DNA from: an uncultured virus (IMG/VR IMGVR_UViG_3300025635_000024)
Lineage: Duplodnaviria; Heunggongvirae; Uroviricota; Caudoviricetes
IMG/VR virus record: IMGVR_UViG_3300025635_000024
DNA length: 20,000 bases
Reading direction: 5' to 3' (one strand)
Shown here: in pieces, positions 4,210-7,920 of the stretch
How the letters are laid out: each line of letters opens with the position of its first letter
Numbering within the stretch: the first letter of the stretch is position 1
Notes under the pieces: model-generated
Told to the model about the DNA's origin: nothing
The model's database searches: none
Seen by the model: only the letters and a program-made list of their open reading frames with translations
Program-made: the position numbers and the translations under genes

Positions 4210-4220
4210 TGAAAATTCAT
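4199..4220. repeat. Perfect 11-bp tandem duplication
   Basis: tgaaaattcat at 4199-4209 and 4210-4220. Confidence 0.9.
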
Positions 4221-5176
4221 GCAGCTTTGAATCTTCCTCTGTTGTCATAGTCACTCGGTTGACCCTCAAATCGCTCTATAAACTGGCTAGAATCCCTGTG
4301 GAACCAGAACGGATACCAGTCCGTACTTTCCCCATTCCGCTGCTTCTCGTTCATCAGGATCATATCTGGACTCTGAGGATCAATCTCCTGACCCTTCTGA
4401 ATATCGTTTTCTTTCTTTTTGTTGCGCCACACAATAAACACGTTGTCTACCTGATCCGTAATCGAAGACGATCCTCGTAGGTCATTCTTGTTCGGCATCA
4501 ACTCATCCGACTGGAGCTTTCGGATATGGTGAATCAGGTGGATATGGCAGTCGTGATCCCTAGCCAGAGCAGTCATCTCGTCTACAAACTTCTTCTGACC
4601 GTTATAGTCATCCTCCCCGGAAATAATTTTCATCAACGAATCCACAAAAAAGTGCTGCACACCTAGTTCTACGGCGCAATATCTTGCCACTGAGATAATC
4701 TGTTCCGCAGACGTAGTTCCCTGCTGGTCATAGAACCAAAGATTGCCTTGTGCAAAAGCCTTAAAACGGGCGTATAAGGCGCGTTTGTAGGGTTCCCCTT
4801 GTCTGGATGCCTCCCAGTCGATATTTTCGCCTGCAAACTGCCTTAAAAGCCGTTTAATCGATACTCTAGGTTTCATCTCAAAGCTGGCAATACAACATTT
4901 CTGCTCAGACTTGATTAAACCCAGTGCAACCTGACCTGTCAGCAGGGACTTACCGCCACCATTGGAACCTGCCCAAACCGTTACCTCACCCGGCCTGAAA
5001 GCAAACGACTTTGTGGCTTCCCAGACCATAGGAACAGACCGATCCACCAGCGGGTTATCGATCTGGTCTTCAAGCTCGTCAATCCAAACTGAAGCGTCTT
5101 TGACTAGGTACTTGTGGTCTGTAGCGTGTAGATAAGCAGAGAAATCAATATTGTCAGTCAGGTACATAGTCATCAT
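4217..5176 (-). CDS. SF4 (DnaB/T7 gp4/Twinkle-like) replicative helicase, no primase domain
   Basis: Walker A GSNGGGKS, SFEM, Walker B FFVDSL, IHLIHHIRK, DLRGSSSITDQVDNV, KQRNG. SD GAGGA before ATG 5176. Confidence 0.9.
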   Translation of the reverse strand: MMTMYLTDNIDFSAYLHATDHKYLVKDASVWIDELEDQIDNPLVDRSVPMVWEATKSFAFRPGEVTVWAGSNGGGKSLLTGQVALGLIKSEQKCCIASFEMKPRVSIKRLLRQFAGENIDWEASRQGEPYKRALYARFKAFAQGNLWFYDQQGTTSAEQIISVARYCAVELGVQHFFVDSLMKIISGEDDYNGQKKFVDEMTALARDHDCHIHLIHHIRKLQSDELMPNKNDLRGSSSITDQVDNVFIVWRNKKKENDIQKGQEIDPQSPDMILMNEKQRNGESTDWYPFWFHRDSSQFIERFEGQPSDYDNRGRFKAA

Positions 5177-5495
5177 ATTCCTCAAGATTATTTATCAATA
5201 TTTGTCCGGACACTGTGTGTACACGTAATGCCTTAGCTGCCAGAAATGCGTTATGCAGTGCTTTGACCTTTTGGTACGGCTCACGGGTTGTTATGTGTAC
5301 TGGCAAGCCTACAGCAAACCTGAGATCCAAAGCATTGATATTTTCTATCGGCAATATTTCCACATCAGCAAATTCTATCGAGTGACGATGCCAGACAGCC
5401 CATGACTTTGTTTTGTCTTCACCGTAGTGGACGAAGATAGCTTTAGGAGCAACCCTATCAAGACGCATCTTGATAATCTCTTGGTGGCCTCTCAT
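5154..5495 (-). CDS. Hypothetical protein between initiator and helicase
   Basis: 113 aa with an LDLRF..GL.VHI motif. ATGA-coupled to the initiator gene. Confidence 0.7.
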   Translation of the reverse strand: MRGHQEIIKMRLDRVAPKAIFVHYGEDKTKSWAVWHRHSIEFADVEILPIENINALDLRFAVGLPVHITTREPYQKVKALHNAFLAAKALRVHTVSGQILINNLEEYDDYVPD

Positions 5496-6154
5496 TTGAT
5501 TCTAAGTTTCCACTCAGGAATATTGTTCTCAGGCATTGCAGGTTTCTGGAACCGCTGATTACGAACCCAGTTACGCCAAGTAGCGTCCCAGTCCTTCTTT
5601 ACACCTTTAGCACCAGCAACGCTAATCCAGTAATCCTTGAAGCCAGCAGAGACTTTAACTGGATCTAGGTCTGGTCTTTCCTGCTTGCAGAACTGCTTTT
5701 GGTCTTCAGACAATTCCCAGTCTTGAGATAAACGAGTTCCACGAGTGCTTACTATATTGGTTATTGGTTTATGGTTATTGGTTAGTTGAACGTCCGCTGA
5801 ACTACTGTTCAACACCTGTTCATCACCTGTTGAACTGCTGTTAAGCCGCTGTCGTGCAGATGCTTTACCACCACGAGATTTTTTCTCAATAAATGACCGA
5901 TATTCCGCAATTTCTTGATCACAACGTGAATGTAACCATTGATCCCCATCCAACTTAAAGAACGAAGAAAGTATCAAATCAACATCATTTTCTGAAACAG
6001 CAAGCTGGAAAGCTAGTGTTCGTAAATCATTTTTTATTGGTTTTTCTGAGTCGTAATACATCCAGAGCATCCGCAAATATGTCATTGTTTGCGTGTCTGT
6101 TAGGCGCGAAGTGGCCTTAATAAAGTCACCGATATGATGCTGGTAATAGTGCAT
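5492..6154 (-). CDS. YdaU/DUF1376-family replication initiator (lambda O analogue)
   Basis: N-terminal MHYYQHHIGDF...YLRMLWMYYDSEKP...RCDQEI, a low-complexity linker, and C-terminal RGTRL..DW...F.DYW...KKDW.ATWRNWVR. Confidence 0.85.
   Translation of the reverse strand: MHYYQHHIGDFIKATSRLTDTQTMTYLRMLWMYYDSEKPIKNDLRTLAFQLAVSENDVDLILSSFFKLDGDQWLHSRCDQEIAEYRSFIEKKSRGGKASARQRLNSSSTGDEQVLNSSSADVQLTNNHKPITNIVSTRGTRLSQDWELSEDQKQFCKQERPDLDPVKVSAGFKDYWISVAGAKGVKKDWDATWRNWVRNQRFQKPAMPENNIPEWKLRIK
5755..5846. repeat. Putative replication origin: iteron array plus AT-rich heptamer array
   Basis: TATTGGT x4 (one variant) at 5755-5782. Six GTTnAAC-like units at exact 11-bp period starting 5785, 5796, 5807, 5818, 5829, 5840. 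Confidence 0.7.
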
Positions 6155-6187
6155 ATCTGCCTCACGTTATTGGCTGTCGTTACTGGT

Positions 6188-6243
6188 GGGATGAGGCAGG
6201 ACGGTAACGAATCGTCTTTTCGGGAGCTACCCTAGCCGTTCCC
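6188..6243 (-). ncRNA. C4-antisense-like structured RNA in the initiator leader
   Basis: Three-way fold: closing stem GGGA..GGC/GCC..UCCC, hairpin GGG-UAGCU-CCC, GAAAA linker, hairpin GACG-AUUCGUUAC-CGUC. The loop is complementary to downstream sites. Confidence 0.6.
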
Positions 6244-6247
6244 GTTG

Positions 6248-6276
6248 ATTATACGGACTTGTTTCTAATACTACAA
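6248..6276 (-). promoter_or_regulatory. Sigma70 promoter for RNA leader and replication genes
   Basis: TTGTAG (6276-6271)-N17-TATAAT (6253-6248). Confidence 0.75.
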
Positions 6277-7818: not shown

Positions 7819-7847
7819 ATAATGCTGCTTTGGCGAAATCCTGTCAA
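7819..7847 (-). promoter_or_regulatory. Leftward early promoter
   Basis: TTGACA (7847-7842)-N17-CATTAT (7824-7819). Confidence 0.75.
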
Positions 7848-7891
7848 TAGAATTTCTATATCGTAATATTCCACTTAATTAAAATTATTCA

Positions 7892-7920
7892 TTGACATAG
7901 TTATTGCATTGGTGCATTAT
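7892..7920 (+). promoter_or_regulatory. Rightward early promoter
   Basis: TTGACA (7892-7897)-N17-CATTAT (7915-7920), followed by SD CTAGGAG 7944-7950 and ATG 7957. Confidence 0.75.

Follow-up and report, generated by a model that had tools for sequence, protein, structure and literature searches.

A leader RNA encoded in the uncultured phage DNA analysed here (a stretch of 20,000 nucleotides, hereafter the window) combines a three-way junction with two loop-borne codes: the loop of its P3 hairpin covaries, across homologous leaders, with two short downstream targets, T1 and T2, and the loop of its P2 hairpin is kept self-complementary while its sequence changes, as in self-kissing dimer loops of the DIS or OLE L9.3 type. 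We assign a probability of about one half to dose-sensitive repression as the function of this RNA, in which its own P3 loop would be parked on the decoy T1, and a second copy, docking through P2, would cover the ribosome-binding site (RBS) of the next gene. The initial annotation of this DNA had proposed a C4-like leader with a built-in switch over the RBS of the replication initiator. Its three-way leader and repeated targets stood up to the analysis, and the loop/target covariation that it asked for was found, whereas C4 membership and the arm/RBS helix as a conserved switch did not.

The leader in the window

All of the annotated elements were read directly on the minus strand, at the coordinates of Table 1. 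The loop UCGUUAC (6210-6204) is complementary to GUAACGA (6183-6177, 7 bp) and to UAACG (6169-6165, 5 bp), and the arm CUGCCUCA (6199-6192) is complementary to UGAGGCAG (6164-6157) over 8 bp, or 9 bp with the flanking U-G pair. The annotated promoter is also present, as TTGTAG (6276-6271), a 17-nt spacer and TATAAT (6253-6248), but its -35 hexamer matches the consensus at only three of six positions, which is why the promoter scan did not list the site. We infer that transcription in the window starts at about 6243-6241. Of 427 distinct leaders, 302 have a -10-like hexamer ending 8-22 nt upstream of the core, with a peak at 12 nt, compared with 39 of 421 coding controls; hence, the RNA usually starts at P1. 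Such spacing suggests a primary 5' end.

Table 1 Features of the leader and of the genes downstream of it in the window
Feature	Position	Strand	Basis
Putative -35 hexamer (3/6 consensus)	6271..6276	-	Direct reading; absent from consensus scan
-10 hexamer, perfect consensus	6248..6253	-	Direct reading
P1 5' strand: 4-bp outer part 6243-6240, 3-bp core 6237-6235	6235..6243	-	Rfam alignment
P2 hairpin: 3 bp, 5-nt loop with palindrome AGCU (6228-6225), candidate self-kissing loop	6222..6232	-	
A-rich junction strand joining P2 to P3	6217..6221	-	Rfam alignment
P3 hairpin: 4 bp, 9-nt guide loop 6212-6204	6200..6216	-	Covariation in 20 sequences
Junction and P1 3' strand; 6199-6191 can alternatively pair with 6165-6157 (subgroup-specific arm)	6188..6199	-	
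Target T1, 7 bp to guide loop, end 22 nt upstream of start codon, candidate decoy	6177..6183	-	
Target T2, 5 bp to guide loop, end 10 nt upstream of start codon, adjoins SD	6165..6169	-	
Shine-Dalgarno-like (SD) GAGG, 5 nt upstream of ATG	6160..6163	-	Direct reading
DUF1376 putative replication initiator, 220 aa, ATG at 6154, candidate regulated gene	5492..6154	-	Pfam E 2.7e-21; PHROG 'primosomal' and 'replication initiation' families
113-aa ORF overlapping initiator stop and helicase start; no family match	5154..5495	-	
DnaB-like helicase, same operon	4217..5185	-	Pfam DnaB_C E 1.8e-16

Folding of the single sequence gave no three-way signal (z from -0.42 to +0.33 over four stretches containing the fold), and structure prediction for the window RNA puts another fold at the energy minimum (z -0.42 for 6150-6242). 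In the window the three-way fold rests on covariation in relatives: in the P3 stem, three of four pairs change on both sides and 100% of cells are paired in 20 aligned sequences. The three-way leader RNA is real, and its transcript carries short repeated targets, one of them at the RBS of the initiator; covariation supports both. The A-rich junction hexamer of the window also occurs in 66 of 69 protein-selected leaders, for which the parser demanded a near match. A U-rich, terminator-like tract follows 273 of 405 leaders and is absent in the window.

Family assignment

The only Rfam match over the element was int-alpA (RF02996), with 28.6 bits at model positions 6-52 (E 0.00026 in 221 nt), below the gathering cut-off of 35.8 bits. 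Its exact 22-nt core is found in at least 118 viral loci; 20 of these were scored against int-alpA and 19 passed the cut-off, whereas the window and, likewise, its nearest relatives (26.2 and 26.6 bits) did not. The window therefore contains a divergent relative of int-alpA rather than a member by the cut-off. Judged by its sequence, the element is a divergent leader RNA of the int-alpA type, in which P1 is short and interrupted and the U-tail is missing. It shares with int-alpA the three-way junction of P1, P2 and P3, the order of the helices, the conserved UA, GAAAA and CU junction strands, and the location in phages, prophages or mobile elements, the window having phage lysozyme, ERF, helicase and initiator genes. 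The continuous 8-bp P1 of int-alpA, followed by a U-rich tail, is absent; P1 of the window consists of 3 + 4 bp with an internal loop. The int-alpA model differs further in that its 71 positions stop at about T1 and its structure line has no loop/target or intermolecular pairing. The nearest record is viral (14 kb, 39% complete) and, incomplete as it is, gave no match. Among 50,697 named phages, there was no close match to the whole leader and there were 22 partial ones.

The scaffold itself is already catalogued, as int-alpA, a motif said to come from Weinberg et al. 2017; Rfam types RF02996 as 'Gene; sRNA'. In the accessible parts of the literature, the term int-alpA is an Rfam label in one table (PMC12370729) and a gene order in PMC13612085, and the accessible main text of PMC5737381 does not contain the name. 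No mechanism of the kind proposed below was found in print in the openly accessible literature, though a supplement probably dealing with int-alpA may cover loop/target pairing.

The assignment to C4 was not borne out. The Rfam search of the window gave no match to C4, c4-2 or c4-a1b1 at E<=10, and no C4-type match appeared in 30 relatives either, in a search whose filters can discard weak matches; c4-a1b1 may be missing from the library, since the 2010 table gives it no Rfam accession. The design and the client are also different. C4 has two guide loops, a' and b', directed to separate a and b targets, whereas in the window a single guide loop finds its complement twice, and the other loop is self-complementary. 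The C4 client is an antirepressor operon, whereas that of the window is the DUF1376 initiator, and Rha or antirepressor genes are rare among family clients (3/124).

Leader collection

The loci were collected by five viral RNA-pattern scans and one protein-based scan, with three further loci from a loose pattern scan of bacterial genomes. Five of the six RNA-pattern scans gave at least 118-120 loci each. The matches of the loose scan were mostly due to chance: of at least 120 loci, five passed the stem filter, three were kept by eye, and two were parsed. The first batch comprised 301 sequences including the window, of which 286 were parsed and one mis-parse was dropped; the second comprised 357 loci, of which 296 satisfied the stem filters for P2 and P3. 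The resulting 581 sequences correspond to 427 distinct leaders, and 405 of them were used in the target tests after the exclusion of 16 without a start call and six with long loops. Start codons were assigned by tblastn for protein-selected loci and elsewhere by a script rule preferring near, SD-like ATGs. Since the junction strands were fixed by the search patterns, their conservation is no evidence, and since the sequences are related, the counts given below are not independent events. Eighteen sequencing runs each contained fewer than 20% of the words, and four RNA runs yielded only short contigs of relatives, two of which reach the leader; these are assembled contigs, without ends or strand.

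The P3 guide loop and its two targets

Covariation between the loop and its targets, a check set beforehand, was found across homologous leaders, far beyond chance at the level of the family. In a zone-free comparison using one leader per distinct P3 loop (202 loops), the cognate leader contained two Watson-Crick sites that do not overlap, each at least 5 bp long, for 104 loops, compared with 2.7% of non-cognate pairs. The corresponding values were 166 loops versus 18.7% at 4 bp, and 45 loops versus 0.35% at 6 bp. The summed site length was 10.47 for cognate and 6.71 ± 0.095 for permuted leaders, with a maximum of 7.11 in 20,000 permutations. The cognate leader was the best or tied for only 71 of the 202 loops because many loops are near-variants of each other. 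In a MAFFT alignment of 20 leaders picked for 9-nt loops, loop/T1 was 96.4% paired, with four of seven pairs changing on both sides, and loop/T2 reached 89% pairing, with 17 cells of double change; not one of the 500 shuffles came as high.

The two targets have different positions and strengths. Among the 337 leaders with both sites of at least 4 bp, T1 exceeds T2 in length in 237, matches it in 65 and falls short of it in 35; T1 mostly begins 12-14 nt past the junction and pairs with the 3' end of the loop, and the period from T1 to T2 peaks at 13-14 nt. T2 overlaps the ribosome-binding zone (-13 to -4) in 322 of these leaders, whereas T1 reaches -13 in four. No pair of 4-bp sites is present in 68 of 405 leaders. 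In the window, the calculated pairing energies are -7.7 kcal/mol for loop/T1 and -3.5 kcal/mol for loop/T2, and T1 lies only about 4-5 nt past P1. These comparisons of sequences support well a two-target switch between loop/T1 and loop/T2, which on the same grounds are the conserved alternatives in the leader. A separate idea, that long T1-T2 spacers fold back to bring the sites close, was unsupported, as just one of 15 spacers beat its shuffles. P1 length correlates negatively with linker length, but the correlation arises in part from the method itself and carries no weight here.

Self-complementarity of the P2 loop

A palindrome of at least 4 nt is present in 57 of 72 distinct P2 loops of up to 14 nt (nine longer ones were excluded), compared with 23.2 ± 3.5 in shuffles and a maximum of 36 in 5000 of them. 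Counted per leader, 342 of 427 have such a palindrome and 85 have none of 4 nt; 14 of the 16 possible 4-mers are in use as cores. The P3 loops, taken as a control, contain palindromes in 19 of 214 cases, with 32.5 expected from shuffles. The excess in P2 recurred in all four separately collected sets (30/38, 14/19, 15/18 and 9/11, against shuffle means of 10.9, 5.3, 7.8 and 4.1), although one shuffle tied with the smallest set. The palindrome centre is displaced 0.5-1 nt to the 3' side of the loop centre in 44 of the 57 loops, so that the palindrome does not extend the dyad of the P2 hairpin.

The commonest non-palindromic P2 loop is GACG, found in 32 leaders. In the accessible parts of the sources, a GACG tetraloop self-kisses via two base pairs and forms the dimer in MoMuSV (PMC7357161; PMC516450). 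Palindrome switching likewise marked intermolecular bridges of OLE and GOLLD that were confirmed by cryo-EM, the covariation evidence for the OLE bridge being a switching among GGCC, GAUC and AGCU (bioRxiv 2024.12.08.627333, accessible part). The properties of the P2 loop strongly suggest that it serves as a dimerisation loop through RNA-RNA kissing; in the window the kiss comprises 4 bp, with -2.9 kcal/mol as a free duplex.

The P2 and P3 codes reassort, as 26 of 52 P3 loops seen repeatedly carry more than one P2 core. Two copies of the leader were found in six of 50 phage records (four lineages), and the P2 loops differ within all six; this is consistent with insulation in a small, biased sample, in which one copy had usually been picked for AGCU. 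In loci L777-L779 (G009, G015 and G021), the two leaders are 585 nt apart, and their P3 loops share five bases and could cross-pair, while the P2 loops differ; the P2 loop of the first copy changes from GATC in G009 and G015 to GACG in G021.

Downstream genes and genomic setting

In a set chosen by initiator similarity alone, the leader is located upstream of 69 of 80 related initiator genes. The element is not exclusive to initiators. A scan of clients took one downstream ORF per loop, many of them incomplete, and covered 124 out of 200 (16 protein-selected ones and the last 60 were left out). Fifty were initiators, primosomal proteins, primases or helicases, and 24 were HNH, homing or other endonucleases; the others comprised three Rha or antirepressors, two ParB, three tail proteins, three of unnamed families and 39 with no match.

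Several observations concern the surroundings of the leader. Two of the three closest relatives of the initiator (L338 and L340) have no such leader; about 120 nt upstream of the initiator start they have a different long hairpin or terminator-like leader followed by a U-run, which may be an alternative control cassette in the same slot. In L003, L012, L028, L114 and similar loci, as in many relatives, the promoter runs into the 3' part of a small gene whose product ends in a conserved Arg-Pro-x-Trp-Phe motif and is perhaps a Cro-like regulator, and the window has an unrelated 123-aa ORF at that position. Inside the initiator gene of the window, at 5756-5846, there are short direct repeats and a 19-nt inverted repeat, as would be expected of an origin-bearing initiator gene; lambda O-like genes have the origin within the gene. 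At 7819-7920, where two early operons diverge, two back-to-back promoter-like sites with identical hexamers (10/12) lie on opposite strands. A 199-aa ORF at 283-882 resembles by eye a free-standing HNH-type homing endonuclease and has no Pfam match; the Rfam search gave no int-alpA match upstream of it. Finally, one member of the family lies in E. coli (L775, NZ_CP073984.1, 4001-4221), where it is part of a late region resembling that of P22 and has a Rha gene on one side and a DUF551 gene on the other. Most of this stretch is present in 28 of 5426 complete E. coli genomes, and it offers a culturable test case.

Proposed mechanism

From these results, the following mechanism may be put forward. 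A promoter-proximal int-alpA-type three-way leader would control translation of the next gene through two exchangeable codes. In a lone transcript, the P3 loop would be parked in cis on the decoy T1, so that T2 and the SD stay accessible. Once the number of copies rises, be it by genome replication, by co-infection or through short terminated leaders, a pair of RNAs would kiss through P2, and the partner's P3 loop, thereby at a high local concentration, would bind the weak T2 and block 30S entry. The outcome would be negative feedback on the output of the initiator (or nuclease), reading the RNA's own concentration and specific to leaders that share both codes. If both partners are full-length, both loops are possibly on T1, so that the model needs either T1-less short RNAs or an exchange of loops.

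The clients are mostly genes whose dose matters, 50 for replication and 24 for nucleases out of 124, which fits the dose model. Copy-number control of the initiator, one of the roles originally suggested, is plausible and gains support from the self-complementarity of P2, a feature absent from the first reading; control over superinfection would be expected only among phages that have both codes in common. Several facts count against the dimer model: the U-tract is absent in the window, the kiss there has only 4 bp, 85 of 427 leaders are palindrome-less, 68 of 405 lack two 4-bp sites, and in the window the arm/RBS fold is lower in computed energy than the bare three-way fold. As to the direction of control, the covariation fits repression and activation on dimerisation alike.

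Alternative explanations

The same parts could work with the opposite sign, which we consider unlikely. The monomer would then be OFF, with its own loop on T2 in cis, and P2 kissing would let the loops take the partner's T1, so that the RBS is freed above a threshold of RNA. Such a scheme uses the same P2 and the same loop/target covariation, and T1, the stronger site, is possibly too close to P1 in the window (about 4-5 nt) for cis pairing. There is a precedent in IsrK of Gifsy-1, which activates its own long transcript in trans (PMC4825925, accessible part), and homing nucleases would gain from synthesis when a second genome is present. However, positive feedback on an initiator or nuclease would be risky, and a symmetric mRNA-mRNA swap leaves the U-tract of 273/405 leaders without a role.

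Rather improbable is a pseudoknot switch acting in cis only, with folding kinetics, a ligand or a protein deciding whether the loop is on T1 or T2, and with the P2 palindrome serving some other end, for example as a DNA operator, a methylation site or a means of RNA stability. The covariation of loop/T1 and loop/T2 requires no partner, the junction nucleotides are highly conserved (though their strands were fixed by the search patterns), and GATC, AGCT and TGCA are common enzyme sites on DNA. On the other hand, P2 uses 14 of 16 cores, which reassort with the P3 codes (more than one core for 26 of 52 shared P3 loops), and the palindrome, which is off-centre in 44 of the 57 loops, is no continuation of the P2 dyad.

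We regard as very unlikely the switch of the initial annotation, in which the P1 3' arm on the SD region is the OFF state. The helix is prominent in the window, where its 9 bp (-16.4 kcal/mol) are the third strongest of 405 and give the lowest computed fold (-20.0 versus -15.7 for the bare three-way fold, pseudoknot left out). A run of 8-9 bp is also found in seven of the 17 members of the window's subgroup, compared with at least 7 bp in 22 of 388 leaders outside the subgroup; however, the remaining 10 members have just 4-5 bp, and the arm sequence is explained by P1. Across relatives, 51.6% of cells were paired versus 51.7% in shuffles, 311 of 500 of which were as high, and the mean energy was -6.81 for cognate and -6.94 for permuted combinations, 86% of permutations being as good. 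With no covariation and an energy no better than permuted, the helix was rejected as a switch of the family. Being the lowest computed fold, it may contribute locally, adding an OFF state in the window. The claim of mutually exclusive folds holds in so far as the arm helix excludes P1, but the 5' parts of T1 and T2 lie in its 25-nt loop, and loop/T1 pairing is therefore not plainly excluded.

A true C4/CI-type immunity RNA, processed by RNase P and stopping an antirepressor operon through two guide loops in trans, would share the logic of loop-borne guides and repeated targets in the own transcript (PMC5320573 and PMC4825925, accessible parts) and would suit the three Rha or antirepressor genes among 124, but it is highly improbable given the lack of any C4-type Rfam match in the window or 30 relatives, the single guide loop, the location of both targets downstream within about 30 nt and the start of the RNA at its own promoter.

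Discussion

Taken at its widest, dose sensing would make the leader a widespread, portable and protein-free copy counter: about 100 nt long, forming a homodimer through a palindromic loop, gating the RBS by an address-coded second loop, reassorting its two codes against cross-talk between different phages and between different genes of one phage, and acting as a main dose control of the initiator across a large group of uncultured phages. From the sequences at hand, we would put this wide version at somewhat short of an even chance. Control of initiator dose at the level of RNA is known from plasmids, where CopA/CopT and IncI repZ act by antisense RNA and a pseudoknot, through loop-initiated pairing near the RBS. 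These systems use a separate countertranscript from the opposite strand, whereas the leader model needs none; the promoter scan of the window listed no opposite-strand promoter-like site near the leader.

Among phage RNAs, C4 of P1 and P7 (RF01695) and the CI RNA of P4 are similar in having a loop-borne guide and repeated targets in their own operon, one of them at an RBS (PMC5320573 and PMC4825925, accessible parts); the CI system covers CI/seqA/seqC (PMC4825925, accessible part). C4, however, is processed to 77 nt and has a pair of guide loops (a' and b'), in place of one guide loop and a palindromic loop, and the targets of CI flank the RNA and cause termination, while those of the leader are two adjacent downstream sites. 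IsrK of the Salmonella prophage Gifsy-1 is another leader RNA and, in its short form, acts in trans on the longer transcript of which it is part; it differs in pairing over about 30 nt inside orf45 and in activating (PMC4825925, accessible part), and the window has no IsrK match in Rfam. The main text of PMC4825925 on IsrK, in its accessible part, contains neither 'dimer' nor 'palindrom'. Self-complementary hairpin loops that switch palindromes are found in the DIS of HIV-1, in L9.3 of OLE and in L21a of GOLLD, and the GACG tetraloop in MoMuLV and MoMuSV; these belong to genome dimers or large RNA assemblies, and none is described, in the accessible sources, as gating a bacterial RBS.

If dose-sensitive repression is the function of the leader, an orphan RNA family common in phages would gain a function that can be tested, and phages would sense genome dose or co-infection by RNA alone, at the replication initiator. 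A short element with two swappable codes would provide orthogonal, dose-compensating leaders for synthetic biology. The leader would be a self-sensing, riboswitch-like element, the ligand of which is the RNA itself.
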